IMG/VR virus record: IMGVR_UViG_3300032236_001065
Location: 1 to 64,000 of that record
Length of the DNA stretch: 64,000 bases
Source: a virus
Strand: one strand, 5' to 3'
Shown: piece by piece, positions 2 through 64,000 of the stretch
Layout of the letters: the number at the start of each line of letters is the position of its first letter
Position numbering within the stretch: position 1 is the first letter of the stretch
Position numbers and translations under genes: made by a program
Notes under the pieces: generated by a model
What the model was told of the DNA's origin: nothing
Database searches by the model: none
Seen by the model: the letters and a program-made list of their open reading frames with translations, nothing else

Positions 2-2476
2 CAAGGCTTGCAAGGGCCTCAAGGAACACAGGGTCTGCAGGGAGTACAAGGTCCCCAAGGTACACAAGGTTTGCAAGGTGTGCAAGGCCCACAAGGAACA
101 CAGGGTCTGCAGGGAGTACAAGGACTACAGGGAATGCAGGGTGTGCAGGGCACACAAGGAACCCAGGGAACCCAGGGAATTCAAGGTCTTGTCGGACCAA
201 TTAATACACAAAATGCTCACCAATCAGTAGAAGCAGTTTCAGTAGGACTTCTTCCAAATTCTCCAGCATATACAGCGGGATCTGCAGATGCAGAAAATGG
301 AACTGGTGTAGGTGCATATCTTCAAGCTACAACAAATGGAACTTTATCTGTTGATGGATATACTTCGCCATATATTGCAATTGGTGATCGTATTCTTGTT
401 ACAGGACAAACCAATCAATCTCAAAATGGTATTTATGTTGTATCAGCAACAGGTGGTGCTTCAGCTAAATGGAAATTAACTCGTGCAACAGACTATAACA
501 ATAATGTGGCGGGACAAGTTGAAGAAGGAGACTATGTATTTGTAACTGATGGAACATCATACTCAAAGACAGTATGGATTCAGGTTGGAAATGGATCAAA
601 TCCTGACGGCACAATTATTATTGGTACAGATAATATTCAATTTGCTCAAACATCTGGACTTGGAGCACAGGGAATAACTGGTGCACAAGGAGCGGGTGGA
701 ACAAGAGCATACTGGGGTTCATTCTGGGATAATACAAATCAAACAGCTTCAAGCACAACAACTGCATATACAGTAGGAATTAATAGCACAGACTCAAATT
801 CCCTAGGTGTAAGCATTGTTAATGGAAATCAGATTACATTTGCTCATGCGGGCGTATATAATGTTCAATTCTCTATGCAATTAGTAAACACTGCATCTGC
901 AATTCATAATGTTAATATCTGGCTTCGCAAAAATGGTACAGATATTGCAGATTCAAATGGACAAGCCACAATTCCTGCAAAATCAGGAAGTTTAGCTGGT
1001 CAAAGTATTGCTTCATGGAACTATGTTTTGCAAGTTGCAGATAATGATTATTTGCAGCTTATGTGGCAAACAGAAAACACTGCAGTATCTATTGAAACTA
1101 TTCCAAGTGGAACTACTCCAAATACCCCAGAATCACCAGGAATTATTGTTACTGCAACACAAGTTGCATATGCAATTCAAGGAATACAGGGTCTTTCAGT
1201 TCAAGGAATTCAAGGCGTACAAGGCGTACAGGGTCCGCAAGGAACGCAGGGTCTTCAAGGTGTACAAGGTGCACAAGGAAATCAAGGAACACAGGGTTCT
1301 CAAGGAATTGGAATTCAAGGTCTATCTGGAACACAAGGAACGCAGGGATTACAAGGGGCAACTGGAGGATTACTCACTCCAACAAGCTATATTTCACAAG
1401 GTAGGCTGGCATCTGATTTTACAGTAACAGCAAATACTGATACATTGCTTCCATTTGTTGTTGATTTTGATCCACAAGGTTGGTGGAATCCAACAACAAA
1501 GAGACTTACACCAACTATTGCTGGTTATTACTTAGTTGATTACCAAGTTTGGTGGGCAGCGGGAGCTTCTGGAATCACTGGTCAAAATAATATTCAAGCT
1601 CGTAGAAATGGTAATACATTTATAGTTGACCAATTAACAATCAATTCAAATAACGGATATACGTTGGATGGAAATAAAGCCATATACATGAATGGTTCAA
1701 CAGACTATCTTGACTTTACTGCTTATACATCAAATACAACATCTCAAGTTATTCAGTATGGTGGTAATACATTGGGGCAAGGTACATTTTTTACCGCCAC
1801 ACTTATTACAAGTGGTACAGTTCAAGGAACTACAGGTTCACAAGGAACTGCAGGCTTTGTAGGTTCAAATGGATCTCAAGGTGTGCAAGGATATACTGGT
1901 TCACAAGGAACTGCTGGATTTGTTGGCTCAAACGGTTCACAAGGTGTACAAGGTTTACAAGGAGCAACTGGGGCGGGAGTTCAAGGAATACAAGGTCCTC
2001 AAGGTACATTAACATTAACTCCTGCAAGAACAGTAACAGAATTTCCAACACCAACATCTGGACAAACTACATTTTCAGTGTCATATACACCAGGATACAT
2101 TGATGTATTCCTAAATGGTGTAAGACTTGCATCTGCTGACTATACCGCCACAAATGGCACATCTGTTGTGCTGGCTACTGGCGTAAATTCAGGCGATGTT
2201 GTTAACGTTGTTACATACTCACTTGGCTTGGGTGCACAGGGAATTCAGGGAAGTGCTGGAACAATAGGAACCAATGGTGTTCAAGGAATTCAGGGTATTT
2301 CTGGAAATGCTACAGCATCTTATCAATATATAGCAAACAATGGTGTTCAGGCAACACAAAGATTAAAGTTAAACTTCGTGGGAGTTACAATTGCTGATGA
2401 TTCTGCTAATAATCAGACAACTGTTACAATTAGTGGAGGAAACACAGAAATTAATGCTATTATGGGAGTTTACTGA
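2..2476 (+). CDS. Collagen-like (Gly-X-Gln) virion fibre with several globular domains (two C1q/BclA-CTD-like, one 'VFLNGV..DYTA' domain); 5' end outside window
   Basis: Frame is open from base 2 (caa ggc ttg...). Several QGxQGx runs separated by beta-rich domains ([15 protein letters not shown]; ILVTGQT..QNGIYVV...W..TRA.D). Confidence 0.8.
20..123 (+). repeat. Coding tandem repeat ([12 protein letters not shown], 36-nt unit)
   Basis: caaggaacacagggtctgcagggagtacaagg is identical at 20-51 and 92-123. Confidence 0.9.
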
Positions 2477-2781
2477 TGGCTACAAGCACAGCAACATTAT
2501 TTTATAGAGGAGCAGCAGCTACTAGCTCTACTACTCTCTATACCGTCCCAGCCAATACAACTTCTGTCCTAACAGATATAGTCATTTCAAGCACAGACTC
2601 AGCACAGCAGTCTGTAACAATCACCGTTGACGGTGTTGTATTAATTCCAGCAGTTCCTGTCCCCTCTAATAGCGTGGTGAATTTTCAGTTTAAGTCTGTA
2701 ATTGCAGCAGGTAAAATCGTTGCTGGTTATGCAGGATCAACAAACGTCAACTTCCACATATCAGGGGTACAGATTGCATGA
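2476..2781 (+). CDS. Small beta-rich virion/fibre-associated protein
   Basis: ORF coupled to neighbours (TGATG, ATGA); 'TLYTVP' motif common in phage fibre adaptors. Confidence 0.6.
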   Translation: MATSTATLFYRGAAATSSTTLYTVPANTTSVLTDIVISSTDSAQQSVTITVDGVVLIPAVPVPSNSVVNFQFKSVIAAGKIVAGYAGSTNVNFHISGVQIA

Positions 2782-4025
2782 CAATAGAACAGTACCCTAC
2801 ATCCAATAACGTAATCAACACACTTACATGGCGTTACAATGCCACAGGTGGAGAAACAACACTTTCAGGAACAGATTCGTTTGGTCAAGCTTTATCATAT
2901 ACGGCGGGAACTGAACAAGTATTCGTCAACGGCGTTCTAATCATTAGAAATGTTGACTATACAGCATCAAATGGATCTTCAGTTACATTAACACAAGCAT
3001 TAAATGCTGGCGATATATTCCAGGTATATGCAATATCTCCATACAATGTTTCTCAAATGCCAGCAGCATCTATTACTGGAACATTAACTTCAAATCAATT
3101 ATTTGTAAGCGGAACAACAACACAAAGAACTGCAACATCCCCATCAGCTGGGACATTATATTTTGACACAACATTGCAGCAGCTATTTATTTATACTGCA
3201 TATGGATGGGCAACTGCAAGTGCATCTCCATTCGCTACAGTATCTGGAGGAGTTTTAACTTCGGATACAACATACTATTATCGTACATTTACCTCTACTG
3301 GATCTTTATCGGTATCTAATGCTACATTAACAGCAGATATGCTTGTTATTTCAGGTGGCGGCGCTGGAAACATTGGTAAGTCGGGAGTTTATTATGGTGA
3401 AGGTGGTGGAGCAGGACAAGTAACATTAACTCTTGCTCAAAGTCTACCAATTTCTACATATTCAATTACTGTAGGTGCAGGTGGAGCTTCAATGTCAAAC
3501 GGAAACTTAGGGGCAGACGGATACTCTGGAACAGCATCACAAGTTCAAACTTTTACTGCTGGAACTCCAGGTGGAGGAGGACTTTATAACACTGGTTATG
3601 GAGGAACTTCTGGCAATGGATTTATTGGAGGAGCACCAAATGCAACAGCTGGCGGTGGCGGCGGCGGAGCGTCTGTAGTTGGAGGATCAGCACCAAACTC
3701 AACAACACCTGGAAATGGTGGAAATGGATTGGGTGGAACTGGTTACACAAGCTATGCAGTATTAGATGGTATTGGAGCTGCAACTTCAACTGGTCAGTTG
3801 TCATCTTCACATTATTACTATGGCGGTGGCGGCGGAGGTACTCAAGGCAATACTATTGGATCTGGCGGCCTAGGCGGTGGCGGAGGCACAAGTACTTCTA
3901 CTGTAAATGCAACAGCAAACACTGGCGGCGGCGGAGCAGCAGGATCTTATCAAGCTTTTGTCCCAGGAACTGGCGGTTCAGGTTTAGTGGTTATTCGTTA
4001 TACAAGAGCATCGGTGGGTGGTTAA
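2778..4025 (+). CDS. Glycine-rich fibre/adhesin paralog 1
   Basis: N-terminal VFVNGV..DYTA domain, YFDTTL motif, GG.LTSD.TYYYRTF, polyGly blocks, ends GGSGLVVIRYTRASVGG. Confidence 0.8.
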   Translation: MTIEQYPTSNNVINTLTWRYNATGGETTLSGTDSFGQALSYTAGTEQVFVNGVLIIRNVDYTASNGSSVTLTQALNAGDIFQVYAISPYNVSQMPAASITGTLTSNQLFVSGTTTQRTATSPSAGTLYFDTTLQQLFIYTAYGWATASASPFATVSGGVLTSDTTYYYRTFTSTGSLSVSNATLTADMLVISGGGAGNIGKSGVYYGEGGGAGQVTLTLAQSLPISTYSITVGAGGASMSNGNLGADGYSGTASQVQTFTAGTPGGGGLYNTGYGGTSGNGFIGGAPNATAGGGGGGASVVGGSAPNSTTPGNGGNGLGGTGYTSYAVLDGIGAATSTGQLSSSHYYYGGGGGGTQGNTIGSGGLGGGGGTSTSTVNATANTGGGGAAGSYQAFVPGTGGSGLVVIRYTRASVGG

Positions 4026-4028
4026 TAA

Positions 4029-5339
4029 ATGACAACAAGTATGTATCCAACTCCAAAATCTTCAATTACATCTGCTATATGGCGTTATAATGCGACGGGA
4101 GGAGAGACAAGTCTCTCTGGTAATGATATAACAGGAGCACCATTAAATTATCAACCTAACCAAGAAGAATTATATCTAAATGGTGTCCTATTAGTAAGAG
4201 GTACAGATTATACTGCTACAGATGGTATAACAATTTCAGGTTTAGCTGCATTATCTGCAGGTGATTATGTTCAAATTCATTCATATAATAATTCAACAAC
4301 TGCAAATGCACTTACATTGGGTTCTACAATTGTTAATTTAGGGCAAACAACTTCTACAGTATCTGGATTAAGTTTAAATAATGCTACAGTTACTATTTCT
4401 TCAGGATCTACAAGTTCCCGCCCAGCAACCCCAAATGTTGGACAATTATATTATGATACAACTCTAAGTTCTTTAATTATTTGGAATGGATCTTCATGGG
4501 GCAATGTTTATTCAGCTTACCCAATAGTAACTGGAGGAACTTTAACTTCAGATGCAACTTATTATTACCGTACATTTACATCAAGTTCAAACCTAGTTAT
4601 TTCTACCAATGCATTAACTGCAGATATACTTATGGTTTCAGGCGGTGGCGGTGGATCTAATAGCGGTGCTATTGGTTCGGGCGGTGGCGGTGGAGCACTT
4701 TATTATTCACCAGGATTAATTTTTAATACGGGAACAACTGCAATAGTAGTTGGTGCTGGCGGTGCAGCAGATTCAACAAGTTCTGGGCCTGGAGCAGCTG
4801 GATCATCATCTAGTTTTGGTTCAACATCAATTTCATATAGCAATGGTGCAACAGGTAGTGGTGGTTCTACAGGAGGAAATGGTGGTAATTCCGAAAGCAT
4901 TATAAGCGGAACTACTACTACATACACTGGAGGAACAGGTGCTGGACCTGCGGGTTCTCGCCGTGGAGGTTCTGGTGCTGGAGCTGGAGCAAATGGCTCA
5001 AGCTCTTATCCTGCAGTTGGCGGTGCTGGAGTTAACACATATTCTTCTTGGGCAACAGCTACTTCTACAGGTGCAAACAGCGGATATTATGCTGGTGGTG
5101 GTGCTGGAGGATATGAATATAATGGCAGCTATTCACAGACCGCTGGAGGTTTAGGCGGAGGCGGCGTTGGCGGAGCTGGAACTTCTAATCCAAACTATAA
5201 TGCTGGAAATGGTACAGCAAATACTGGCGGCGGTGGTGGTGGTTGCGGAGGTCAAGCAAGTGTAGTTGGAGGAGCTTCAGGTGCTGGCGGTTCAGGAATT
5301 GTTATTGTTCGTTATACAAGATCTCAGGTAGGTGGATAA
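4029..5339 (+). CDS. Glycine-rich fibre/adhesin paralog 2
   Basis: Same architecture as paralog 1; ends RYTRSQVGG. Confidence 0.8.
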   Translation: MTTSMYPTPKSSITSAIWRYNATGGETSLSGNDITGAPLNYQPNQEELYLNGVLLVRGTDYTATDGITISGLAALSAGDYVQIHSYNNSTTANALTLGSTIVNLGQTTSTVSGLSLNNATVTISSGSTSSRPATPNVGQLYYDTTLSSLIIWNGSSWGNVYSAYPIVTGGTLTSDATYYYRTFTSSSNLVISTNALTADILMVSGGGGGSNSGAIGSGGGGGALYYSPGLIFNTGTTAIVVGAGGAADSTSSGPGAAGSSSSFGSTSISYSNGATGSGGSTGGNGGNSESIISGTTTTYTGGTGAGPAGSRRGGSGAGAGANGSSSYPAVGGAGVNTYSSWATATSTGANSGYYAGGGAGGYEYNGSYSQTAGGLGGGGVGGAGTSNPNYNAGNGTANTGGGGGGCGGQASVVGGASGAGGSGIVIVRYTRSQVGG

Positions 5340-6529
5340 TGTCCAAAGCTAGAGATATTGCAAGTGCTAAATCATTAAAGGCGGGGACTACAAGTAACCG
5401 CCCCTCTTCTCCTAATATAGGAGATTTATATTTTGATACAACAATTGATGATATGTTTGAGTATACTCAGGCGGGATGGATACAAATTGGATCAGAAGTT
5501 CCAAGACCCCCAACTATTGGAACAATTGTTACATATGGCAGTGGAGCAGCAACAGTTCCATTCACTCCATCTACTCAAGGAGCGGCAGCTGGTACATATA
5601 CTGTAATTTCTAATACAGGAGGATTTACTGCTACAGGTACTACTAGCCCCATAGTTGTATCTGGATCATTTAATGCTGGATCTTCTTATACATTTACTGT
5701 TACAGCAACAAATGGAAATGGAACCTCTACTTCATCTTCTGCAAGCAACTCTGTTATACCTTATTCACTACCAACAGTAACTGGTGGAACCTTGACTTCT
5801 GACGCAACATACTATTATAGAACTTTTACAGCCAGTTCAACATTAGTTATTTCAAATGCTCCTCTTACAGCAGATGTATTTATTGCAGGAGGCGGAGGCG
5901 GTGGTGGTGGTGCTGGTGTATGGACAGATACTCGTGGCGGCGGCGGCGGCGGATATACATCATTAAATAGTGGAGTATCACTTAGTTCTTCAATAGCCGT
6001 AGTTGTTGGTGCAGGCGGTGCAGGAGGTTCAAGTAGTGGTCAAAATGGAAGTAATGGTGCTGCATCTAGCCTAGGATCGTATACTGCAAATGCAGGTTAT
6101 GGAGCTGTAGGTGCAAGTGGAGGGGCGGGAGGCTCTGGCGGAGCAGGTTCGGCTGGTGGAACTCCAAGTACAACTCCTGGAGGAACTGGAGGAACAAATG
6201 GTTCCAATGGAGGCAATGGAGCTGCAGGTTCAGGAGGAGCTGGGCAAGGAACAACTACCTATAATACTTGGAACGGAAACATATATTATGGCGGCGGCGG
6301 TGGCGGTGGTTCATGCTCATATGGAACTGGAGGCGGAGCAGGAGGAGCTACGGGTGGTGGACAAGCAGGCGGAAATGGCGGATCTGGTAGCGATGGAACA
6401 GCAAACTCTGGCGGCGGCGGCGGTGGTGGCGGTGGAGACTACGGTGGAGCTGGAGCTCATGGATACGGTGGAGCAGGCGGATCAGGTAAAGTAATTGTTA
6501 GATACACAAGAGCACAAGTTGGTGGATAA
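5339..6529 (+). CDS. Glycine-rich paralog 3 with FN3-like domain (start corrected to ATG 5339, MSKARDIA)
   Basis: TAATG overlap with upstream stop; PRPPTIG...YTFTVTATNGNG.S..S..SNSV FN3 signature; ends RYTRAQVGG. Confidence 0.8.
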   Translation: MSKARDIASAKSLKAGTTSNRPSSPNIGDLYFDTTIDDMFEYTQAGWIQIGSEVPRPPTIGTIVTYGSGAATVPFTPSTQGAAAGTYTVISNTGGFTATGTTSPIVVSGSFNAGSSYTFTVTATNGNGTSTSSSASNSVIPYSLPTVTGGTLTSDATYYYRTFTASSTLVISNAPLTADVFIAGGGGGGGGAGVWTDTRGGGGGGYTSLNSGVSLSSSIAVVVGAGGAGGSSSGQNGSNGAASSLGSYTANAGYGAVGASGGAGGSGGAGSAGGTPSTTPGGTGGTNGSNGGNGAAGSGGAGQGTTTYNTWNGNIYYGGGGGGGSCSYGTGGGAGGATGGGQAGGNGGSGSDGTANSGGGGGGGGGDYGGAGAHGYGGAGGSGKVIVRYTRAQVGG

Positions 6530-7704
6530 TGTCAAAAGCAAGGGATATTGCAAATAAGAAACCAGTAAAATTTGGATCTACTGCAAATAGACCAGCATCT
6601 CCAGCTGTAGGTCAAATTTACTATGATACTACCTTAGATGATTTAATTGAATATACTTCGGCGGGATGGGTACAGATTTCTTCTCAAATTCCCCGCACTC
6701 CAACTATAGGAACAGCTACAGTAATATCAACAACACAAGTATCATTAAGCTTTAGTCAAAATACACAAGGCGCAGTTGCTACATCATTTGTTGCTACATC
6801 AAATACTGGAAATTTTACAGGAACTGGAAATAGCAGCCCTATAATTATAAATGGTTCATTTGCAGCAGGAACTTCATATACATTTACTATAATTGCTAAA
6901 AATGGAAATGGTTCATCATCTTCAAGTGGTGCAAGTAATTCAGTTGCCCCAGCTCCAGTATTAATAACTGGAGGAACATTAACTTCTGATGCTACTTACT
7001 ACTATAGAACATTTACTTCAACGGGAAATCTTACGGTGCTTGGAAATCTAACGGCAGATGTTTTGGTTATTGCAGGTGGCGGAGCAGGAGCCTATGGATA
7101 TGCTGGCGGAGGTGGTGCTGGAGGACTTCTTTATTTTCCTGCAACAGCATTAACAACAGGTTCTTATACAGCTACAATTGGAGCAGGAGGTACTATTAGC
7201 ACTTCAGGCTACAATACTGGAGGAAATGGAAATAATTCTCAATTTGGTTCATTGACACCAGTTTGTTATGGTGGCGGTGGCGGTGCCATTTACGGAAATA
7301 CTGGAAATTCTGGTGGTTCGGGCGGTGGCGGTGGTTGGTCTGGCGGATCGGGCGGTTCAGGAACATCAGGTCAAGGTCACAATGGAAGTAGCAGATACCC
7401 AGGTGGTGGCGGTGGTGGCGGAGCAGGTGGAGATGCTAGTGGTAATGACGGTGGTCCAGGAACTTCAGACTATTCATCGTGGGCTTTAGCAACATCTACA
7501 GGAGTTTTATATAGTGGTTCTTATTACTATGCAGGTGGCGGTGGTGGAGAATATAGTAGTAATTCAACAAACGGAAGAGTTCCTGGTTATACAGCTGGTC
7601 CAGCAAATTCAGGAAGTGGTGCGGGTGGAAACAACAGTTCTAACCCTTCAGGCGGCTCGGGAATAGTTATTGTTAGATATACAAGAAGTCAGGTAGGCGG
7701 GTAA
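6529..7704 (+). CDS. Glycine-rich paralog 4 with FN3-like domain
   Basis: MSKARDIA start, FN3 signature, ends RYTRSQVGG. Confidence 0.8.
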   Translation: MSKARDIANKKPVKFGSTANRPASPAVGQIYYDTTLDDLIEYTSAGWVQISSQIPRTPTIGTATVISTTQVSLSFSQNTQGAVATSFVATSNTGNFTGTGNSSPIIINGSFAAGTSYTFTIIAKNGNGSSSSSGASNSVAPAPVLITGGTLTSDATYYYRTFTSTGNLTVLGNLTADVLVIAGGGAGAYGYAGGGGAGGLLYFPATALTTGSYTATIGAGGTISTSGYNTGGNGNNSQFGSLTPVCYGGGGGAIYGNTGNSGGSGGGGGWSGGSGGSGTSGQGHNGSSRYPGGGGGGGAGGDASGNDGGPGTSDYSSWALATSTGVLYSGSYYYAGGGGGEYSSNSTNGRVPGYTAGPANSGSGAGGNNSSNPSGGSGIVIVRYTRSQVGG

Positions 7705-8819
7705 TGTCAAAAAATAGAGATAGATCTACATCATCAGGAAAAATTGGACCTACATCAGCTATACCAAGTAACCCATATATTGGGCAAAAATATTTTGACA
7801 CAACTTTACAACAATTTTTTAATTATACAACTGCAGGATGGTTAGCAGTTCATCAACTCCCGCCACTTGTTGTAACTGGCGGAACATTAACATCTGATAC
7901 AACATACTATTATAGAACTTTTACAACTACTGGAAATTTAGTTGTTACTGGTGGAACTGGATTATCATTTGATTATTTAGTTATTGCAGGCGGTGGCGGT
8001 GGCGGTGGCGAATGGTATACACCTGGAGGCAATATTGGTGGTGCAGGCGGCGGTGCTGGAGGTCTTCGTTCTACTGTAACTGCAACAGGTGGTGGTGGTA
8101 CTTTAGAGTCAACTTTATTTGCATCAACAGGTATAATCTATGCGATAACAGTTGGTGCGGGAGGAGCAGGCGGTAATGGTTCATCTCAAACTAAATCTCA
8201 AATTGGTTCTAATTCAAGCATTATAGGTGGTTCAGTTTCCATATCTTCAACAGGTGGTGGTCGTGGAGGAGATTCCGCTTACCCTTCAGATGCCACATAT
8301 GGTTCTGGCGGAACAGGTGGTTCTGGTGGTGGAAGTGTTGCTCAATACGGAACAGAAACAATAGGAAGCGGAACTAGCAATCAAGGATATTCAGGAGGAG
8401 CGGGTAATGGCGTATCTCCAGCCTATGGCGCAGGCGGCGGTGGCGGAGCAGGTGCTGTAGGAAGTAATGGAAGCTCTAGTGCGGCAGGTACTGGTGGAAA
8501 TGGCGTTTTAATTTCAGCTTTGGCTACACCAACTTCAACTGGTGCATCAGGTTATTATGCAGGTGGTGGCGGCGGAGGTTATTATGGCTCAGGCTCTACA
8601 ACCCCCGCTGCTGGAGGTTCTGGCGGCGGAGGATCTGGAAATTATCGTTATGCTGCAAGCGGAAATGGAAACGCAAGCGGTTATGCTGGAACTGCAAACA
8701 CTGGCGGAGGCGGTGGTGGTTCAGGTGGTTCACAAGGTGGAACAGCTTGGCAAAATGGCGGTAATGGTGGAAGTGGTTTAGTTATTATTAGATATACTCG
8801 TACTCAAGTAGGCGGGTAA
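7704..8819 (+). CDS. Glycine-rich paralog 5
   Basis: PYIGQKYFDTTLQQ, polyGly domain, ends RYTRTQVGG. Confidence 0.8.
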   Translation: MSKNRDRSTSSGKIGPTSAIPSNPYIGQKYFDTTLQQFFNYTTAGWLAVHQLPPLVVTGGTLTSDTTYYYRTFTTTGNLVVTGGTGLSFDYLVIAGGGGGGGEWYTPGGNIGGAGGGAGGLRSTVTATGGGGTLESTLFASTGIIYAITVGAGGAGGNGSSQTKSQIGSNSSIIGGSVSISSTGGGRGGDSAYPSDATYGSGGTGGSGGGSVAQYGTETIGSGTSNQGYSGGAGNGVSPAYGAGGGGGAGAVGSNGSSSAAGTGGNGVLISALATPTSTGASGYYAGGGGGGYYGSGSTTPAAGGSGGGGSGNYRYAASGNGNASGYAGTANTGGGGGGSGGSQGGTAWQNGGNGGSGLVIIRYTRTQVGG

Positions 8820-8840
8820 CTAAAAGAATGATAAAATATA
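8811..8840 (+). repeat. 30-bp gene-end/promoter cassette, copy 1 (contains TGATAAAAT extended -10)
   Basis: ggcgggtaactaaaagaatgataaaatata is identical to 10971-11000. Confidence 0.9.
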
Positions 8841-8855
8841 TTAATTGGAGATTAA

Positions 8856-9926
8856 ATGTCAAGAGCTAGAGATGTTTCAAATACAGGATATTCAATAGGG
8901 CCCACAACATCCCGCCCATCTTCTCCATATATCGGACAAGAATATTTTGACACTACATTGCAAGAATTAATTACGTATTCATCCGTTGGTTGGGTAGCAG
9001 CTGGAATATCTGCAATACCAGTAGTATCAGGCGGAACACTTTTTTCAGATACAACATATTATTATAGATTGTTTACATCTTCTTCAAATTTGGTAGTTTC
9101 TGGACAATCTTTAACTGCAGATATTTTGCAAGTTGCAGGCGGCGGGTCTGGCGGAAGATATGGCGGAGGCGGAGGTGCAGGAGGAGTTGTTTATATAAAT
9201 TCTCAATCACTTACCCCACAATCATATTCGGTAACCGTTGGTGCAGGAGCAGCGGGATATGCAGGAGATGCTCAAAATGGAGGACAAGCAAGCAATGGAA
9301 ACAATAGTGCATTTGGAGCCTTAGTTCAAGCGGTAGGCGGTGGCGGTGGTGGACTTTATCAAAATAACAAAAATGTAAGCTCAGCAGGAGCAGCAGGTGG
9401 GTCAGGTGGTGGCGGAGCAATGTACAATATTAGTGCAAGCACAGCCGCAGGAGGATCTTCAAACCAAACAACTGGTAGCGGATATACTGTTTATGGCAAT
9501 TCTGGAGGAAATGGTGGTTTGTATAACAGTATTGATGCTGGAGGTGGTGGAGGAGCAGGAGCATCTGGAAACAATGGTACTTCAAGTGGTGCAGGAACAG
9601 GAGGAAATGGAACTTCAGCATATTCTTCGTGGGGACTAGCAACTTCAACTGGTCAAAACGTTGCTGGAACAGTTTATTTTGCTGGCGGTGGCGGTGGCGG
9701 ATCTGTTAAATCAAATACCCGTGCCTCTGGAGGCTATGGCGGAGGAGGTTCGGGAGAGTATTCAAACAATACATCAACAACTTCTTCAATTGTAGATGCA
9801 TTAACAAACACAGGTGGTGGCGGTGGAGGAAACCCAGATGTCTATGTTAGCGGAGTTTGGAGAGCAGGAAATGGTGGTTCAGGAGTAGTCATTGTTCGCT
9901 ATACTAAAGCATCAGTAGGCGGGTAA
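8856..9926 (+). CDS. Glycine-rich paralog 6
   Basis: MSRARDV, YFDTTLQ, polyGly, ends RYTKASVGG; GGAG SD. Confidence 0.8.
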   Translation: MSRARDVSNTGYSIGPTTSRPSSPYIGQEYFDTTLQELITYSSVGWVAAGISAIPVVSGGTLFSDTTYYYRLFTSSSNLVVSGQSLTADILQVAGGGSGGRYGGGGGAGGVVYINSQSLTPQSYSVTVGAGAAGYAGDAQNGGQASNGNNSAFGALVQAVGGGGGGLYQNNKNVSSAGAAGGSGGGGAMYNISASTAAGGSSNQTTGSGYTVYGNSGGNGGLYNSIDAGGGGGAGASGNNGTSSGAGTGGNGTSAYSSWGLATSTGQNVAGTVYFAGGGGGGSVKSNTRASGGYGGGGSGEYSNNTSTTSSIVDALTNTGGGGGGNPDVYVSGVWRAGNGGSGVVIVRYTKASVGG

Positions 9927-9932
9927 TAAATA

Positions 9933-10979
9933 ATGGGTCGCATTAGAGATATGGCACAATCAGCAAGATCTATTAATACTACTTCTAATCGCCCCGCAAA
10001 TCCTTATATAGGTCAAAAATATTTTGATACAACATTACAACAGTTATTAAATTATACAAGTGCTGGCTGGTATCCAGTAAATACATATCCAGTTGCAACA
10101 GTAACTGGTGGTACATTATATTCAGACACAACATACTATTATAGAGCATTTACTGCTACTGGAAATTTAACTGTTTCAACATTACCATTAACTGCAGATA
10201 TTCTTATTGTAGCAGGCGGTGGCGGTGGCGGTGGACTTGCAGGTGCTGGTGGAGGTGCTGGCGGATTGCTATATTTATCAAGTCAAAGCTTATCAACAGG
10301 AACACATACTTCAACTATAGGTGCAGGTGCAGCAGGCATAGGTGCTTGGTCAGCAACAATAAATGGTTCAAATTCTCAATTTGACTCAAACATTGCTTTA
10401 GGTGGTGGTGGCGGCGGCGGTGCTAACCAGACAGGTGCTTCTGGTGGTTCTGGCGGCGGTGGCGGTGGTGGATATGAATCAGCTGCTGGCGGAGCTGGGG
10501 GAACAGGAACTTCTCCTCAAGGAAACAATGGCGGCTCAGGAGCAAATGGTAACGGTTCTTTAGGTCACTCAGGTTCTGGCGGTGGCGGTGGCGGTGCTTC
10601 TACCGCTGGAGGATCTGGAACAACAAATGCAAACGGAGGATCTGGAAGTTCAGCTTACTCAGCTTGGCTATTAGCAACAAGCTTAGGTCAAAATGTTTCT
10701 GGTACATATTACATTGCTGGCGGTGGCGGTGGTGGCGGAGGTTATAACACTTCTTCTATCGTGGGTACTGGTGGTAATGGTGGAGGAGCTAATGGTGGAG
10801 CAGCAGGTTCTGGAGTAGGCGGCAACGGTGGTGCAGGTGCAGGTTCATCCGCAAATAGTAATACAGGTGGCGGCGGCGGCGGTGGCGGTGGCGGTCAAGG
10901 TGGCGGCGGTCAAGGTGGCGGCAATGGCGGCTCTGGATTAATAATTATTCGCTACACTCGCACACAAGTGGGCGGGTAA
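9933..10979 (+). CDS. Glycine-rich paralog 7
   Basis: Same motifs; ends RYTRTQVGG. Confidence 0.8.
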   Translation: MGRIRDMAQSARSINTTSNRPANPYIGQKYFDTTLQQLLNYTSAGWYPVNTYPVATVTGGTLYSDTTYYYRAFTATGNLTVSTLPLTADILIVAGGGGGGGLAGAGGGAGGLLYLSSQSLSTGTHTSTIGAGAAGIGAWSATINGSNSQFDSNIALGGGGGGGANQTGASGGSGGGGGGGYESAAGGAGGTGTSPQGNNGGSGANGNGSLGHSGSGGGGGGASTAGGSGTTNANGGSGSSAYSAWLLATSLGQNVSGTYYIAGGGGGGGGYNTSSIVGTGGNGGGANGGAAGSGVGGNGGAGAGSSANSNTGGGGGGGGGGQGGGGQGGGNGGSGLIIIRYTRTQVGG

Positions 10980-11000
10980 CTAAAAGAATGATAAAATATA
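10971..11000 (+). repeat. 30-bp gene-end/promoter cassette, copy 2
   Basis: Identical to 8811-8840. Confidence 0.9.
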
Positions 11001-11013
11001 CACAGGAGATTAA

Positions 11014-11997
11014 ATGACACGTGCAAAAGATTTAGCAAGCTCAGCATATTCAATAGGAAATACAAGTTCCCGCCCATCATCACCATATGTTGGACAAGAG
11101 TATTTTGATACAACCCTTCAACAGCTAATAGTCTATAGCTCTGGCGGTTGGATTGCAGCTGGAAGCCCAGGTCCAGTTACAGCTAGCTATCTTGTTGTGG
11201 CAGGTGGCGGAGGATCTAAGGCAGCAACAGGTTGCTGCACAGGATCTGGTGGTAATGGAGCGGGTGGTCTTTTAACTGGATCACAACAATTTTCTTCAGG
11301 TGTCACATACACAATTTCTGTAGGTGCAGGAGGTAGTGGAAGTAATGGCTCAAACTCTTCTATTTCTGGAACTGGATTAACTACTATCTTAGCTTATGGT
11401 GGAGGATACGGAAGTACTTATACTGCAGGAGATCCTGCAACCTCTGGAGGTTCAGGCGGAGGAGGTTGTTATCCAACAGCTTCTGGAGGAGCTGGAACAA
11501 GCGGTCAAGGTTATGCTGGAGGAAATGATGCAGGTGCACTATCTCCAAACGCTGGCGGAGGCGGCGGAGGCGGAGCTGGCGGGGTAGGTTCAGATGGAGA
11601 AATTCCAGATGGAAGACATACTGGCTCTGGAGGAAATGGTATTCAATCATCAATAACTGGAACAGCAACATACTATGCTGGCGGCGGCGGAGCAGCTGTA
11701 CGTGGAAACTGGGGAAGCAATGGAACATATTACAAAGGAACAGGCGGTTTAGGTGGTGGTGGCGTTGGAGCAGATCCAACAACAAACAATGCAACTAATG
11801 GATCTGCAAATACAGGAGGCGGAGCGGGCGGAGCTTATGGAAATAATACAGGCGCAACAAATACTATTGGCGGCTCAGGGGTTATTATAATTTCTGCACC
11901 AAGAGCAGCTGCATCAACAACAGGCTCTCCAACCATAACAACAAATGGCTCAAATACGGTATATACATTTACAGGCATAGGATCAATAACCTTTTAG
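11014..11997 (+). CDS. Glycine-rich paralog 8 (variant C-terminus)
   Basis: MTRAKDLA, YFDTTLQQ, polyGly; ends GSGVIII...VYTFTGIGSITF instead of VGG. Confidence 0.8.
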   Translation: MTRAKDLASSAYSIGNTSSRPSSPYVGQEYFDTTLQQLIVYSSGGWIAAGSPGPVTASYLVVAGGGGSKAATGCCTGSGGNGAGGLLTGSQQFSSGVTYTISVGAGGSGSNGSNSSISGTGLTTILAYGGGYGSTYTAGDPATSGGSGGGGCYPTASGGAGTSGQGYAGGNDAGALSPNAGGGGGGGAGGVGSDGEIPDGRHTGSGGNGIQSSITGTATYYAGGGGAAVRGNWGSNGTYYKGTGGLGGGGVGADPTTNNATNGSANTGGGAGGAYGNNTGATNTIGGSGVIIISAPRAAASTTGSPTITTNGSNTVYTFTGIGSITF

Positions 11998-15472: not shown

Positions 15473-17042
15473 TTTAACAGTAGCAGATGATTTTGATGAC
15501 GACGATAATGGAGTCACAATTAAGATGGGAACACAGCATACAACAGAATCTGATTTTGATGACCCATTTAATCTAACATGGGATGAAATTAGAAAAGCCG
15601 AAGGCCTAGGTGCAAACTTCCGCCGTAAGGTTGATAGAATGCAAAAGTCATTTACAGGGCAGGGGGATGCAAAGTCTAAGAAGCTTGATCCACTTGATCT
15701 TACAGGATATTCACTTTTTCAGATTGTTCAGCCTCCATATAACGTTCTTTATCTAGCACAGCTTTATGATGTATCTCCATATCATCACTCTGCAGTAAAT
15801 GCTAAAGCAGCAAACGTAATTGGTCTTGGATATCAATTTGATAATACATGGGCAACTACAATGAAAATTGAAGATTCAATGGATAACACAAAGAAGCTTG
15901 ACAAACTTCGCTCAAAGATTGAGCAGGCTAAAGTTGAACTTCGTGGCTACCTAGAATCTCTTAATTCAGATGATTCATTTACAGAAACAATGAAGAAGCT
16001 TTATATTGACTTAGAGTCAACAGGAAATGCCTATCTTGAAGTTGGTCGTACATCAAATGGAAAGATTGGTTACATTGGACATATTCCTACAACAACTATG
16101 AGAATCCGCCGTCACCGTGATGGCTTTGTTCAGGTTGTTTATAACCGCTACACATTCTTTAGAAACTTTGGTGATACCGAGACCCCAGATCAGATTGGAA
16201 CTGACCCCCAGCCAAACGAAGTTATTCACTTCAAAGTCTTTACTCCTTCCAATACATATTATGGAGTACCAGACATTCTTTCAGCAAAGAATGCAGTAGC
16301 GGGCGATGAGTTCGCACAGCGTTTTAATCTGGATTATTTTGAGAACAAAGCAGTACCTCGTTACATTATTGTTGTAAAGGGTGCAAAACTAACTGCTGAT
16401 TCAGAGCGTAAGTTGCTTGAGTTCTTCCAAACTGGACTTAAAGGCAGAAACCATAGAACCCTTTATATTCCCCTTCCATCAGACGGAGAACAGGGTCGTG
16501 TTGAGTTTGAAATGAAGCCAGTTGAAGCGGGAGTTCAAGATTCATCATTCAAGAACTATGCAGTAGAAAATAGAGATCGTATTCTTATTGCACACAGAGT
16601 TCCTATTTCTAAGATCGGTATGCCACAAGGTGTATCGTTGGCAAATGCTAAAGATGCAGATAAGACATTTAAAGAGCAGGTATGTCGTCCTCGTCAAGAA
16701 GAACTTGAGTTTAAAGTTAACTTGATTATCAGAGAATTTACCGATGCTTTCGTATTGCGATTTAATGAACTTGCACTTACAGATGAAGAGACACAATCAA
16801 GAATTGATGATCGCTATCTTAAGGATCAAGTTATTACTCCTAACGAAGTTCGTGCACGTCGTGGGATGGCTCCACTTGAAGGTGGTGATGCAGTATTGGT
16901 TATCAATCCTAAAGCAATGCAAGATGCAGCATCAGACGCAAGCGGAAACAAAACTCGTGACCAAAATAGAACTTTAAATGCACCAGACAAAATGGGAACA
17001 GCTCGTAACGCTAAAGGCGAAGGGCGACAAGAAGGCAACTAA
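15465..17042 (+). CDS. Portal protein
   Basis: GNAYLE, EVIHF, YYGVP, YFENKAVP, AHRVP...G, TPNEVR..G..P..GGD portal motifs. Confidence 0.92.
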   Translation: MANLTVADDFDDDDNGVTIKMGTQHTTESDFDDPFNLTWDEIRKAEGLGANFRRKVDRMQKSFTGQGDAKSKKLDPLDLTGYSLFQIVQPPYNVLYLAQLYDVSPYHHSAVNAKAANVIGLGYQFDNTWATTMKIEDSMDNTKKLDKLRSKIEQAKVELRGYLESLNSDDSFTETMKKLYIDLESTGNAYLEVGRTSNGKIGYIGHIPTTTMRIRRHRDGFVQVVYNRYTFFRNFGDTETPDQIGTDPQPNEVIHFKVFTPSNTYYGVPDILSAKNAVAGDEFAQRFNLDYFENKAVPRYIIVVKGAKLTADSERKLLEFFQTGLKGRNHRTLYIPLPSDGEQGRVEFEMKPVEAGVQDSSFKNYAVENRDRILIAHRVPISKIGMPQGVSLANAKDADKTFKEQVCRPRQEELEFKVNLIIREFTDAFVLRFNELALTDEETQSRIDDRYLKDQVITPNEVRARRGMAPLEGGDAVLVINPKAMQDAASDASGNKTRDQNRTLNAPDKMGTARNAKGEGRQEGN

Positions 17043-24964: not shown

Positions 24965-25003
24965 TTCAGGCCCCCGTCAATAAAAGGCGGGGGTTCTGAA
25001 TTT
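24965..25003 (+). terminator. Intrinsic terminator after tail tube gene
   Basis: TTCAGGCCCCCGTC-AATAAAA-GGCGGGGGTTCTGAA then TTT. Confidence 0.75.
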
Positions 25004-37969: not shown

Positions 37970-37986
37970 GATAGGAGGTTGAATAA

Positions 37987-39159
37987 ATGGCGGGTTCTCA
38001 GTCATTAATAGTAAAAGGCTTACAGCCAAACACTATTTATAAATTACAAGTCTATGCAGTTAAAACTGTTAATGGAACTGTAACACATTCACCTTCTACT
38101 ACAACAACAATTACAACTGGTGCAAATAGCACAGGTGGAAATAATTTTAAAGTTACAAATGGTGGAACCGATATGCAGCTTGCAGGCGGAACCATCTACG
38201 CTGGAACTTTTGATGATGGCCTAGGACAGCTAGACCCGTTGACTGGATCTTCAGATGGAGTTACTCCATCCGCATTAACGGCATCAAACTATGGAGTAGC
38301 ATTAAATCAGTTTGGAATAATGGCTTATAATGGTGGAACTCCAGAGTTTTATATTGACTCAAGAACTGGCAATGCATTTTTTGCAGGCACACTTACAATT
38401 GGATCTATTACTGATGCAGGCGGGGCTACACAAAGCTCTGTAGATAGTTTAAGTGGCTCTATAAGCAGTATATCTAGTTCATTGTCAAACTATATATTAC
38501 AAAGTGGATATACTCCACAAACATTTACATCCATAGGTCATGGAACAGTAAATACTGGAACTTTATATTCAAATAACCTTACAGTTCCATTGACTGGAAC
38601 ATATGTATATTCCACAACTGGATCATATATTGATTTATCAACAGGTGCAATTATTACTCCAAGTCTTGCCATATGGCCACCCGCAGTAGATTCTACAACT
38701 CCGACTGGACCAAATCACGATACAAATAACTGGTCCGCATATTTTGCAGGAACACTGATGAACTCTTTAGATGGACAAAATGGAATTGTTATACAAAGCT
38801 ACACTAATCCTCCATCTAATATAAGTGGTGGAACACCTATCGGTGGTACGGATGCGGCATATTCTATTAACTTTAATAAAGCTGGAACAACATATGCAAG
38901 TATGGGTTTATTCGGAACTAATAATTTTTCAATTTCTTTGGCAAATTCCAGCGGAGCTGTTGCGGGTTATTTAGATCTTGGTGTTTACGCCACAGCAATT
39001 GGAGGATACAATAGTATTCAGCTAAACGGATCAGATAATAGAATATGGCTACAAAGTTCTACTCCATATAATCAAAGCGGCTTAAGAAATATAATTGCTG
39101 TATCATCAACAGCAAGTGCACCTTCAGGCAATAATGGTGATATTTATGTTACATACTAG
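37987..39159 (+). CDS. Tail fibre-like protein with N-terminal FN3 strand
   Basis: GLQPNTIY..QV.AV; F.ID..TGNA.F.G; ends G.NGDIY. Confidence 0.6.
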   Translation: MAGSQSLIVKGLQPNTIYKLQVYAVKTVNGTVTHSPSTTTTITTGANSTGGNNFKVTNGGTDMQLAGGTIYAGTFDDGLGQLDPLTGSSDGVTPSALTASNYGVALNQFGIMAYNGGTPEFYIDSRTGNAFFAGTLTIGSITDAGGATQSSVDSLSGSISSISSSLSNYILQSGYTPQTFTSIGHGTVNTGTLYSNNLTVPLTGTYVYSTTGSYIDLSTGAIITPSLAIWPPAVDSTTPTGPNHDTNNWSAYFAGTLMNSLDGQNGIVIQSYTNPPSNISGGTPIGGTDAAYSINFNKAGTTYASMGLFGTNNFSISLANSSGAVAGYLDLGVYATAIGGYNSIQLNGSDNRIWLQSSTPYNQSGLRNIIAVSSTASAPSGNNGDIYVTY

Positions 39160-51500: not shown

Positions 51501-51859
51501 AGATTGAGCCAGGCATGATGTACTTCTTCTTGGTAGGAGATAACCGCATTCACAAGTATGTGACAATTGATGATGTAGTCAATAAGGTTGATGACCCATT
51601 CGTACATTGGCTATACAAGGATAAGTTAAAGATTGATAATGGAAAGATGCTTGTTTTAGATTTTACACATTATAAGACTAAAGCAAACAAGATGATGGCA
51701 CATATTATTTTGTCTGATGCAGATAAAAAGCTTGAGAGAGTAATTGCTTTCCCGAAGCTTTATGCAAAGGCACTTGGAAAGATGCAGGCGGGAATGATTT
51801 GTGACCCCGCAATTGCACAGATGGATGATGGAACTTTGTTTGTTAAGGAGGTGAACTAA
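48584..51859 (+). CDS. dnaE: DNA polymerase III alpha subunit (family C)
   Basis: PHP HLHVHSHYS..DG, TDHG, GRGSAAGS, PDIDTD, HAAG, K.D.LGL, YQEQ, FNRSH. Confidence 0.97.
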   Translation: MSDFVHLHVHSHYSLMDGLNTPHELLEAAKNQGQASLAITDHGSLASHRDMQIAAKELGMKPILGLEAYISSTDRFDKRAVAKRDDNTSLYNHIILLAKDDLGLKNLQKLSQIAWTEGYYHKPRIDIDALWEFGDGIIVVSGCMNGLISKAIERGDNEKAREYVKMFKNRFGKDFYIEVQAHNPGSLNTALLALADEFGVKPVATGDCHFAKKEERDLEELLLILSTKPTQNKEADYASGRSYTNVIDRFDHLYPDRPISFSEINVYIQSYKEIKADFEKAGITRKDIYESSVEIADKVEVYDFHENLDLLPVPKKNALKTVKELCEKSLVEKGLDNETYRERLQEELQVIADKNFASYFLVVGDMVGWAKENQIMVGPGRGSAAGSLVCYLMGITEVDPIKFDLLFFRFINPERNDFPDIDTDFMDRRRGEVKEYLRKKFKHVASISTYQYFKDKGVVRDVARAFLVPLGEVNKALKGVETFEEYESSQSTEEFRKKYPEVTKYASMLRGKIRGNGMHAAGVVVARDDISKYVPIETRKDPNDSVSGRIPVVAYDMDQTADLGLIKLDVLGLKTLSVIDDTLRTIEHIKKKKIDLKSIKLNDPKVFEMLSGGFTKGVFQAEATPYTNLLMKMGVSTFEDLAASNALVRPGAMNTVGGSYIRRKKGEEMVTYAHPIMHEFTERTYGVIIYQEQVMQACVYLGGMSWADADKVRKIIGKKKDASEFDAYKDQFVQGASKHITSEDAIKLWHDFEAHAGYSFNRSHAIAYSMLSYYTAWLKYYYPLEFMFAVLKNEKDKDARTDYLLEAKRLGIKVLLPHINESELDFSIQGNSIRFGLSNIKYISDNIGSKITQLRPFKSYKDFTEKAGVKGSGINSRAIESLNMIGAAAFDDNKRKGTENENLYEYLGIPKFDTGKLSPAIKAQVNPLEEFLEEGCFVLLAMVKSIKKGLTWARVELVDDTGSVGIFHEVNTKIEPGMMYFFLVGDNRIHKYVTIDDVVNKVDDPFVHWLYKDKLKIDNGKMLVLDFTHYKTKANKMMAHIILSDADKKLERVIAFPKLYAKALGKMQAGMICDPAIAQMDDGTLFVKEVN

Positions 51860-61537: not shown

Positions 61538-61609
61538 TTCCCGTTCGTCCAATTGGCAGGACAATGGCCTTTGAAGCCATGAATCGTGGTCCGAATCCAC
61601 GGCGGGAAG
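61538..61609 (+). tRNA. tRNA-Gln(TTG)
   Basis: TTCCCGT/GCGGGAA, GTCC/GGAC, ATGGC-CTTTGAA-GCCAT, CGTGG-TCCGAAT-CCACG. Confidence 0.9.
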
Positions 61610-62563: not shown

Positions 62564-62564
62564 T

Positions 62565-64000
62565 ATGGCTATAAGACTAAACTTAGGATCTTTATCAAAC
62601 AAGATTACTTTGCCTGGTCTTTTTCGCAATTTTTCAATATTAAGTGGTGGAACAACAACTTCTGATTCAATTTATTATTATACAACTTTTAACAGCACTG
62701 GAACTTTTAGTATTTCTAATGCACCATTAAAAGCAGATATTCTTGTTGTCGCTGGTGGCGGTGGCGGAGGATATCAACAGTCAGGCGGTGGTGGAGCTGG
62801 AGGATATCAATCTTTATCTTATAAGCTGCCTGTAGGAACATATACTGTAACTATCGGCGGCGGTGGTTATGGTGGATATGAAAATGTAAAAGGTGGTCAA
62901 GGAGCAAGCTCTTCTTTTGGTAGTTTAATTACTTCAGTTGGCGGCGGTGGCGGAGGCTCTTGGGGCCGTGGTGCAACAGGTGGAGTAACAAATGTTGGTG
63001 GAGATGGAGGTTCTGGTGGTGGTAATGGAATCGGAACTGGAAACCCAACTGGTGGACACGGAATTGCTGGGCAAGGACATGATGGCGGAACAAGTGCTTT
63101 CAATGGCGGTGGCGGCGGAGCAGGACAAATTGGGCAACAAGGAGATGCAGTAAATGGATCTTATGGCGGTGCTGGCGGAAATGGTTTAACTTGGTTTAAT
63201 GGTCAAACATATGCAGGCGGCGGCGGCGGAGGAGCATTCCAACCAGCCAATACTGTAGGAGGTGCTGGCGGTGCTGGCGGAGGCGGAGCTGGAAAATCTG
63301 GAAATATAAACGGAGATCCTGGCTCAACAAATACTGGCGGCGGCGGCGGTGCTGGAGGGCAATATTCAAGTTCTTTCCCATTTGGAAGTGGCGGAACGGG
63401 CGGTTCTGGAATTGTTATTCTTCGTTATCCTAAATCTATAGTAGCTTCAAATGATTCATCCCTTACATATATTACAATTAATGGAACAAGATATTCAATA
63501 TCAGACCTAGCTGGAATTAGCAACACAATTAATTTACCATATGGAACAACATCTGCAACAGTATCAGCAACCCAGTCAAACAAGTATGCAAAAATTAATA
63601 TATCTAGTACTTCAGGTTTTTCAACAGGAGATAATACATGTACCATAACAGTAACAGCTCAAGATCAAACAACAACCGCTTATACATTAAATCTTCATGT
63701 TATTGCAGCATCAACAGATACTAGAATAGGTACAGTTACAATAAATGGAACAACATATTCTGCAGATGATTTATCTGCAATTTCAGGCATTATTTCATTG
63801 CCATATGGAACAACTTCAGTAACAGTATCTGCAACTGCCCTAGATCAATTTGCAAGAATTGGTACTATAACTGGTAGTACAGATTTGTCTGTAGGAGATA
63901 ATACACTTCATATAGCTGTAATATCACAATCTGGTTTAATAGGATTTTATAATATTAATCTTGCAGTTGCAGCACCCGCAACAGATTCATCTTTATCATC
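62565..64000 (+). CDS. Glycine-rich paralog 9 fused to cadherin-like beta-sandwich repeats; 3' end outside window; not in ORF track
   Basis: MAIRLNLG...SGGTTTSDSIYYYTTF...ADILVVAGGGGGG...GGSGIVILRYP, then two (L..ITING....LPYGTTS.TVSAT....GDNT..I.V) repeats. Confidence 0.8.
   Translation, partial: MAIRLNLGSLSNKITLPGLFRNFSILSGGTTTSDSIYYYTTFNSTGTFSISNAPLKADILVVAGGGGGGYQQSGGGGAGGYQSLSYKLPVGTYTVTIGGGGYGGYENVKGGQGASSSFGSLITSVGGGGGGSWGRGATGGVTNVGGDGGSGGGNGIGTGNPTGGHGIAGQGHDGGTSAFNGGGGGAGQIGQQGDAVNGSYGGAGGNGLTWFNGQTYAGGGGGGAFQPANTVGGAGGAGGGGAGKSGNINGDPGSTNTGGGGGAGGQYSSSFPFGSGGTGGSGIVILRYPKSIVASNDSSLTYITINGTRYSISDLAGISNTINLPYGTTSATVSATQSNKYAKINISSTSGFSTGDNTCTITVTAQDQTTTAYTLNLHVIAASTDTRIGTVTINGTTYSADDLSAISGIISLPYGTTSVTVSATALDQFARIGTITGSTDLSVGDNTLHIAVISQSGLIGFYNINLAVAAPATDSSLS

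Follow-up and report, generated by a model that had tools for sequence, protein, structure and literature searches.

Short words that selection keeps frequent along whole genomes, among them Chi, the DNA uptake sequences and the FtsK-orienting polar sequences (KOPS), have each led to a specific DNA-handling machine. In competent bacteria, the DNA uptake sequence (DUS) of Neisseria and the uptake signal sequence (USS) of Haemophilus span 9-12 bases and are recognised by an uptake receptor. Chi, a short, G-rich, asymmetric and over-abundant word, is known from Escherichia coli (GCTGGTGG), from Bacillus subtilis (the pentamer AGCGG; PMC3321194) and from phages such as the lambdoid phage LLS and Pseudomonas phage MD8. 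Here we describe the pentamer GCGGG and its complement CCCGC in the IMG/VR virus record IMGVR_UViG_3300032236_001065, a linear sequence of 81,523 bases (CheckV completeness, 76%) whose first 64,000 bases, hereafter the window, were analysed. The pentamer is the core of a graded seven-base word that is in excess independently of reading frame and orientation, in this phage and across the family of its relatives.

Like the uptake sequences, the word has a density of roughly one site per kb, is found in genes in all frames and in either orientation, and a few inverted pairs serve as hairpin or terminator stems (one at 24970-24993, others beyond the window); unlike them, it is a 5-7-mer in a lytic-looking phage without an uptake context. 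With Chi in phages it shares, besides its form, its location within coding sequence in several frames and its greater frequency on the strand running in the direction of transcription. The window has a G+C content of 39.0% and an observed/expected CpG ratio of 0.51, and all sizeable open reading frames (ORFs) of the record lie on the + strand. Gene sets are our own ORF calls (55 in the window, greedy calls elsewhere), not a curated annotation. A full-text literature search found no description of an excess of GCGGG or GGCGGG (supplementary files were not covered); the freshwater actinophage paper PMC10202952 deals with a different, 39-kb phage family.

A sequence-only reading of the window had tallied about 80 GCGGG and about 25 CCCGC, roughly one site per 600 bp, where a few tens at most were to be expected. 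The exact + strand counts are 80 and 26, or one site per 604 bp, and Markov models of orders 0 to 2 give 22-27 GCGGG and 6-13 CCCGC (base composition, 23.5 and 13.1; first order, 21.9 and 5.9; second order, 26.5 and 7.1). The third-order expectation (74.1 and 22.4) comes near the observed counts, which means that GCGG and CGGG already carry the excess; the pentamers most in excess under that model are GGAAC (156 against 93.7), GGATC (74 against 39.6) and GGTTC (97 against 63.8). The hexamer GGCGGG/CCCGCC makes up 50 of the 80 and 12 of the 26 sites, and the heptamer GGCGGGA/TCCCGCC 24 and 7 of them.

The excess also survived synonymous shuffling, a check that the earlier reading had proposed. 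In 300 within-gene permutations of synonymous codons, with the protein and the codon usage of each gene held fixed, GCGGG was expected 24.3 +/- 3.8 times (maximum 36) and CCCGC 6.0 +/- 2.2 times (maximum 12), so that for both words even the highest of the 300 values is less than half of the observed count. With all dinucleotides held as well, the expectations rose to 41.5 (z = 7.9) and 9.0 (z = 6.4), still well below observation. GGCGG, GCGGG, CCCGC and CCGCC rank as the top four among all 1024 pentamers relative to the codon shuffle, and the two top hexamers are GGCGGG (50 against 6.9) and CCCGCC (12 against 0.8). Both hexamers withstood a further shuffle in which the third codon base and the two bases following it were kept together (50 against 13.7, and 12 against 4.0), and hence two separate synonymous choices are linked. 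For the whole record, the expected count of GCGGG is 27.1 and the observed count 100. Inflation by paralogous genes was rejected as the cause, since the 106 window sites represent 101 distinct sequence contexts and only 5 are redundant. The window holds 9-20 sites per 8-kb bin, with a stable ratio of orientations. Regular spacing was likewise rejected: the 143 sites of the whole 81.5-kb record are spaced in a Poisson-like manner (coefficient of variation, 1.03), with a largest gap of 3718 bp.

Occurrence in all frames, claimed in the earlier reading, is borne out by 53, 18 and 5 GCGGG in frames 0, 1 and 2 (the other 4 are outside ORFs) and 10, 9 and 7 CCCGC. Confinement to one frame and to the sense strand, the sign of a codon-pair or translational mark, was found for GGCGG alone and not for GCGGG/CCCGC. 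By contrast, the strand bias of about 3:1, which had been read as the polarity of a Chi-like or primase signal, did not stand as such: a G-rich, glycine-rich coding strand accounts for it, as the codon shuffle expects 24:6, or 4:1, and relative to that shuffle both orientations are enriched alike (GCGGG 3.3x, CCCGC 4.4x). The same holds in a complete relative of 108,356 bases (G001), whose 103 minus-strand genes give observed/expected ratios of 3.5 for GCGGG and 2.8 for CCCGC, whose 18 oppositely oriented, plus-strand genes hold 6 sites in sense and 8 in antisense orientation, where 2.3 and 2.2 are expected, and whose sites do not cluster at an end.

Equal enrichment in both orientations weakens the two polar readings. 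A Chi-like recombination or anti-degradation signal would act in one orientation and be read by host AdnAB or RecBCD, or by the RecB/Cas4-like nuclease of the phage together with RecA. It would fit the 80:26 skew, the core GCGG common to GCGGG and the B. subtilis Chi, and the phage's own RecA, Cas4/RecB-like nuclease and RuvC (the latter two being weak matches below the cut-off); in addition, PMC12315714 and PMC3784561 report an accumulation of Chi in some phages. We nevertheless consider such a signal very unlikely, because the supposedly wrong orientation is equally or more enriched, sites are spread evenly with no pile-up at one end, and the word is not over-used in the DNA of the weakly assigned candidate hosts. 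Moreover, the Chi-rich phages described in PMC12315714 have no recombination module of their own and carry Chi oriented 20:3 or 32:0 and clustered at one end, whereas this phage has such a module. It is scarcely credible, too, that the sites prime lagging-strand synthesis through the DnaG-like primase, although the phage encodes one with a Zn-ribbon and a Toprim domain, the sites are dense enough on AT-rich DNA (of the order of an Okazaki fragment length), and, should replication proceed in the direction of transcription, more of them would lie on the presumed lagging-strand template. A primase of the DnaG type recognises only some three bases and would not need an enriched 6-7-mer; the polarity is no greater than composition gives, and the spacing is Poisson-like, with gaps of up to 3.7 kb.

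Within genes, no preferred place was found, the decile profile being flat and 3 sites lying within 30 nucleotides of starts and 4 of stops, against 3.4 expected; nor did 1155 family ORFs show a sharp GGCGGG peak at -15 to -5 of their start codons, as a link to ribosome binding would have given. Clustering of rare codons was also rejected as a cause, since the covariance of third-position G/C is a negligible 0.0042 at lag 1 (some 70,000 codon pairs); it is 0.0011 at lag 1 when GCGG/CCGC codons are masked, and at most 0.003 at lags 2-12. GCGGG is probably also enriched between genes: 70 kb of raw noncoding segments hold 80 copies against 15.9, and 35 kb of dereplicated segments gave 32 against 8 and 19 against 3-6. 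This test is supportive at most, because the segments include hairpins, T-arms of tRNAs and ORFs cut off at the ends of loci.

Flanking bases extend the pentamer to a graded word, (G)GCGGG(A), of which GGCGGGA is the best form. At the 864 + 271 family sites, G stands at -1 in fractions of 0.57/0.43 and A at +5 in 0.54/0.48, in both orientations. In ordinary genes, the otherwise rare alanine codon GCG is used at 47 of 136 Ala-Gly sites but at only 20 of 919 alanines in contexts starting with neither G nor CC, while GCT is used at 43 of the 136 and 295 of the 919; before glycine, ACG, TCG and GTG go up only about twofold. Across 2469 Ala-Gly sites of the family, the frequency of GCG varies with the base three positions upstream (G, 218 of 368; A, 170 of 829; T, 154 of 1089; C, 8 of 183) and with the glycine codon that follows (GGA, 31%; GGT, 12%); it is lower in genes denser in Ala-Gly, going down from 42% to 9%, also within classes of third-position G+C content and of upstream base. 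The context dependence reaches three bases to either side of the variable position. Counts of GCGGG per gene track gene length better than they track synonymous opportunities (log-likelihood gap, 26).

Enrichment that is strand-symmetric and frame-independent is what a DNA-level drive would give, and a density proportional to length also speaks for a neighbour-dependent mutation or repair bias, either through the errors typical of the DnaE polymerase that the phage itself encodes or through a mismatch correction akin to very-short-patch (VSP) repair that turns near-cognates into GCGGG. The signal is missing from candidate hosts, and in Streptomyces phage BillNye, whose DnaE is 57% identical, GCGGG is the top-ranked all-G/C pentamer, yet with just 44 copies against 31.8. 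We judge this origin quite unlikely. The usual polymerase and damage contexts reach less than the three bases either side that are seen here. VSP repair in E. coli leaves footprints in word usage (CCWGG-related words) and is comparable in that it makes a short word over-abundant on both strands and in a sequence-specific way, without the word itself having to serve any function. Here, however, Vsr (PF03852) has no match in the record, a C5 methyltransferase is found neither in the record nor in any of five relatives, and the transition neighbours that a T:G drive should deplete are not depleted (GTGGG 1.02, CCCAC 1.22, CCTGC 1.12; only GCAGG, at 0.79, is low), so the VSP-like form of the explanation was rejected.

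A separate, coding-level layer concerns GGCGG. Its 238 copies in the window lie mostly in frame 0 (196, as GGC-GGN), in a sequence with 2145 glycine codons and 472 Gly-Gly pairs, most of them in the eight glycine-rich genes at 2778-11997. Its counts per gene follow the synonymous opportunities much more closely than they follow the length of the gene (log-likelihood gap, 178). Before another glycine codon, GGA drops from 47% to 19% and GGG to 0, while GGC rises from 14% to 42%; of the 469 Gly-Gly pairs in the record's nine glycine-rich genes (these eight, and 62565-65951), 195 are written with GGC. GGAGG is halved (99 copies against 199 in the codon shuffle). The excess of GGCGG is shown by this to be mainly a codon-pair effect, in which GGC-GGN takes about 40% of Gly-Gly pairs because the ribosome-binding-like GGAGG and runs of G are avoided. 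Avoidance of words resembling the Shine-Dalgarno (SD) sequence inside genes is a known phenomenon; codon-pair bias and the avoidance of intragenic SD-like sequences were reportedly treated by Li, Oh and Weissman in 2012. The likeness is close, with GGA-GGN halved and GGC-GGN at 42% of Gly-Gly pairs against 13-14% GGC elsewhere, but it explains GGCGG only, whereas GCGGG/CCCGC is enriched in three frames and as the reverse complement. The gene 62565-65951 (record coordinates; it runs past the window's end) encodes a glycine-rich protein of 1128 amino acids with Pfam Gly_rich_2 and Cadherin-like domains; with 126 Gly-Gly pairs and 54 GGCGG, its 3.4 kb contain zero GCGGG and one CCCGC, fewer for its size than any other gene.

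The window is also marked by words that are nearly absent. Against the codon shuffle, TCGA is found 0 times (82 expected), CCGG 0 times (53), GCGC 6 times (77) and CGCG once (36); over 938 kb of family sequence, the counts against first-order expectation are 51 of 1374, 0 of 611, 279 of 876 and 37 of 379, respectively, the avoidance of GCGC being relaxed in lineages L049, L050 and L066. Two non-palindromic CpG words are low in both orientations, GACGC/GCGTC (9 against 29.7 and 5 against 13.7), an HgaI-type site, and CGCAG/CTGCG (18 against 46.4 and 5 against 11.3); both may be further restriction targets.

These bans suggest a by-product without any reader: the purge of CpG palindromes, of other CpG words and of SD-like words would confine codons ending in G or C to the contexts still permitted, mainly GCGGG and GGCGGG, and these would then seem enriched under every null model that holds codon usage fixed. 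Among the 15 words one mismatch away from GCGGG, three are banned, and GGGGG and GAGGG are also depleted; moreover, the word lies in hairpin stems where alternative G/C stems would hold banned sites. In a constrained shuffle (synonymous permutations not exceeding the observed counts of 21 depleted words, with CpG matched at 1220 against 1238) the expected GCGGG rose from 23 to 35.7 and CCCGC from 5.9 to 8.3, against 80 and 26 observed (still 2.2x and 3.1x); GGCGG rose from 114 to 174 (238 observed), GGCGGG from 5 to 11 (50 observed, 4.5x), and CCCGCC stayed at about 1 (12 observed, about 12x). The bans on CCGG, TCGA, GCGC, CGCG and SD-like words hence explain a real share of the excess, which stays below half in the case of the pentamer and is small in that of the hexamer. 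Enrichment of comparable GC-rich pentamers, which the earlier reading had named as a point against its claim, was found in part: GCGGG stands out even under the bans, but the other permitted all-G/C pentamers are mildly enriched (1.2-3.1x). We regard the by-product as possible but on the unlikely side, because the bans do not account for the flanking bases that the two orientations share (G at -1, A at +5), nor for the preference of GCG over GCT before glycine, and because the GCGC-tolerant L049, L050 and L066 keep an excess, if a weaker one. Restriction-site avoidance as described elsewhere resembles the extreme loss of palindromes seen here, and its enforcement lifts the expected motif count by about half; it predicts losses, not a residual 2-12-fold gain of one word with matching flanks.

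The earlier reading had also considered a methylation self-mark, noting that CCCGC is the type IIS recognition site of FauI/SmuI. A restriction-modification mark, with CCCGC sites methylated as a self-label or acting as decoys, would suit a family shaped by restriction pressure, as the complete loss of CCGG indicates. We hold it to be exceedingly improbable: targets of restriction are normally lost, not gained, and the best word has seven bases, not five. Methyltransferases of PF00145 (C5) and PF01555 (N4/N6) have no match in the record (76% complete) or in five relatives including the complete G001 (other families and host enzymes were not searched), which leaves a methyl mark made by the phage without support.

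With the portal gene as probe, 437 relatives were found in IMG/VR; the family counts are based on 80 loci among them (938 kb). They are 71-83% identical in aligned DNA, so that synonymous sites are largely scrambled, and they show the excess nonetheless: against first-order expectation, GCGGG is found 796 times (243), CCCGC 251 (83), GGCGGG 452 (60) and CCCGCC 108 (13). These totals include two duplicates (L067 = L066, L068 = L038), dropped in later family analyses, as was L079 once the whole of G001 was used. In the codon shuffle, G001 has 56 GCGGG against 16.1 and 17 CCCGC against 6.1 (also 24 against 3.3). G001 further contains, at 52,401-66,200, a 14-kb block without counterpart in our 76%-complete record; its genes are small and for the most part oppositely oriented, and its motif density is about double (26 sites in 13.8 kb).

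Composition shared with the host was rejected as an explanation: in 19 Nanopelagicales/Planktophila loci (279 kb), a host assignment that is itself weak, GCGGG and GGCGGG reach 0.72 and 0.74 of first-order expectation and there are no bans (CCGG 1.11, TCGA 0.99). A control of 50 kb from phage T5, with the same G+C content, gave an observed/expected ratio of 0.97 over the 32 all-G/C pentamers (CCCGC, 9 against 6.7). In BillNye (53% G+C) the bans are missing and GCGGG is mildly in excess at most (61 against 54, besides the shuffle result given above).

Individual sites are collected in Table 1. Conservation of sites in relatives, another check proposed in the earlier reading, gave a divided result: the portal-gene site at 16527 and the hairpin site at 24987 (10 of 12 aligned relatives) are kept, site 17589 holds the word in 24 of 44 relatives with the same amino acids, and site 16299, close to the best-conserved one, in only 6 of 78. 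The earlier reading had correctly placed the word at two gene starts and four gene ends and in tRNA-Gln, and had found none in the capsid gene, where we find none either. It had further put a site in a terminator at 24988; there is indeed a GCGGG in a terminator-like hairpin, but it starts at 24987, and a scan for consensus terminators calls nothing at 24970-24993, as the loop exceeds the length that the scan allows. Right after this hairpin, at 25002-25029, stands a promoter-like TTGTCT-16-TATAAT (10 of 12 matches, TG-extended), before the gene 25052-25387. Inverted GCGGG/CCCGC pairs are few in the window. Beyond it, two intergenic hairpins are built from the word and its complement, at record positions 67510-67528 (CCCCGC..GCGGGG) and 73996-74014 (GGGCGGG..CCCGCCC); the latter is followed by a run of T and the former by just three T, and both look like intrinsic terminators. 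A short inverted repeat, TCCCGC-AA-GCGGGA, lies at record position 79222.

Table 1. Positions in the window of the GCGGG/CCCGC sites discussed and of the genes that were recognised.
Feature	Position	Strand	Remark
GCGGG/CCCGC sites, genome-wide	275..63980	both orientations	first site starts at 275, last at 63975
Eight glycine-rich paralogous tail/adhesin-like genes	2778..11997	+	147 of the 238 GGCGG (16+12+26+14+19+15+30+15)
TCC CGC CCA (Ser-Arg-Pro), repeated motif with antisense-orientation sites	4417, 8911, 11069, 32211	+	three cluster as one context
GGC GGG TAA, ends of four paralogous genes	7697, 8812, 9919, 10972 (span 7697..10976)	+	three of four are one repeated context
Portal	15465-17042	+	
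GCG-GGN (Ala-Gly) in the portal gene	16527..16531	+	best conserved single site; GCGGG in 62 of 78 aligned relatives (71-83% nucleotide identity)
Head protease/scaffold	18336-19730	+	
Major head protein (capsid)	19767-20927	+	neither GCGGG nor CCCGC
Hairpin CCCCCG-N11-CGGGGG	24970..24993	+	3' of gene 24154-24939; terminator-like; holds GCGGG 24987
Tape measure	25669-31224	+	
ATG GCG GGT, starts of two genes	35926, 37987 (sites 35929, 37990; span 35926..37994)	+	
DnaB-like helicase	within replication module 45292-60772	+	
DnaG-like primase	46871-47830	+	Zn-ribbon and Toprim
DnaE-type polymerase	48584-51859	+	
Inverted pair GCGGG 51788 / CCCGC 51806	51788..51810		18 bases apart, near 3' end of DnaE gene
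RecA	52237-53235	+	
Cas4/RecB-like nuclease	54335-55120	+	weak Pfam match, below family cut-off
RuvC-like	55391-55948	+	weak Pfam match, below family cut-off
Large terminase	58931-60772	+	
GCGGG in 3' part of tRNA-Gln (61538-61610)	61602..61606	+	

Among cultured phages, those of Streptomyces that belong to the Stanwilliamsviridae come closest (DnaE 57% and portal 53-56% identical at the protein level). The module at 45292-60772 has the gene order of BillNye, namely helicase, primase, DnaE, RecA, RecB/Cas4-like nuclease, RuvC, glycosyltransferase and terminase, then tRNAs (of which the window has three genes), and this shared order suggests that the lake phage family is a sister group, low in G+C, of the Stanwilliamsviridae. 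A megablast search of 7.9 kb of the record against a phage collection gave no match. Among public sequencing runs, 12 carry this DNA, all of them as assembled contigs, and no RNA run is listed among them. Just upstream of the terminase genes, at 56514-58418, lies a cassette of three genes, for an FkbM-like methyltransferase (weak match), a CAP59-like mannosyltransferase and a cupin of the mannose-6-phosphate isomerase type, which may serve glycosylation of the virion or of the cell surface. The best matches of the cupin (61%) are metagenome-assembled genomes of freshwater Actinomycetota, one of them labelled Nanopelagicales, followed by Planktophila assemblies; this 61% identical gene is the sole lead to the host and points weakly to an actinobacterium of the Nanopelagicales/Planktophila type.

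In the comparisons made here, GCGGG and GGCGGGA behave neither as Chi nor as a methylation target, a codon-pair bias or a repair footprint. A DNA-level cause is much likelier than chance or plain codon usage, given that the excess survives shuffling and is present in all frames, in both orientations and family-wide; to this extent the selected DNA-level signal of the sequence-only reading stands, with the reservation that part of the excess follows from word bans. Linked synonymous positions, together with independence of frame and orientation, are the pattern to be expected from selection for a word recognised by a protein. Our tentative reading, to which we give a little less than an even chance, is that GCGGG, in its best form GGCGGGA, is a selected word for a putative DNA-binding or DNA-processing protein. 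As double-stranded DNA it would be held above expectation by selection, and its sequence-specific reader, probably phage-encoded, would use it along the whole genome, at some 1-2 sites per kb without regular spacing. We take the word for neither a polar signal of the Chi or primase kind nor a methyl mark set by a phage enzyme.

Several observations weigh against such a recognition word. With Poisson-like spacing and a gap of 3.7 kb, nothing enforces a minimum density, and single sites turn over, as 16299 does. The share of the excess that comes from word bans, under half, is real, and bans that were not modelled could add to it; the 16 permitted all-G/C pentamers, except GGGGG, are all above 1 (1.16-4.7x), so that a general pull towards permitted G/C words may contribute. 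Context-dependent mutation by the phage's DnaE may be an alternative source. That GCG is used less where Ala-Gly is dense could in part be due to a faster turnover of the proteins of low-complexity genes, the noncoding segments are contaminated by the truncated ORFs, tRNA arms and hairpins mentioned above, and the family counts are phylogenetically non-independent, with two duplicated loci among them.

A more specific form of the recognition-word reading, which we think unlikely, is that GGCGGGA is a family-specific address on the phage chromosome, read by a putative phage-encoded protein, by which phage DNA would be told from host DNA without base modification. The word and the purge of the four CpG palindromes would together form a sequence barcode, which would serve replication restart, protection from nucleases, condensation or packaging.

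An abundant family of uncultured lake actinophages keeps this word despite strong AT and anti-CpG pressure. If there is no reader, the family would be a clean case of restriction-site purging and codon-pair rules making a strong false motif, and such a case would matter to all motif-enrichment scans of phage genomes. If a reader protein exists, it would offer a new handle on phage replication or DNA protection in one of the most abundant groups of freshwater bacteria.

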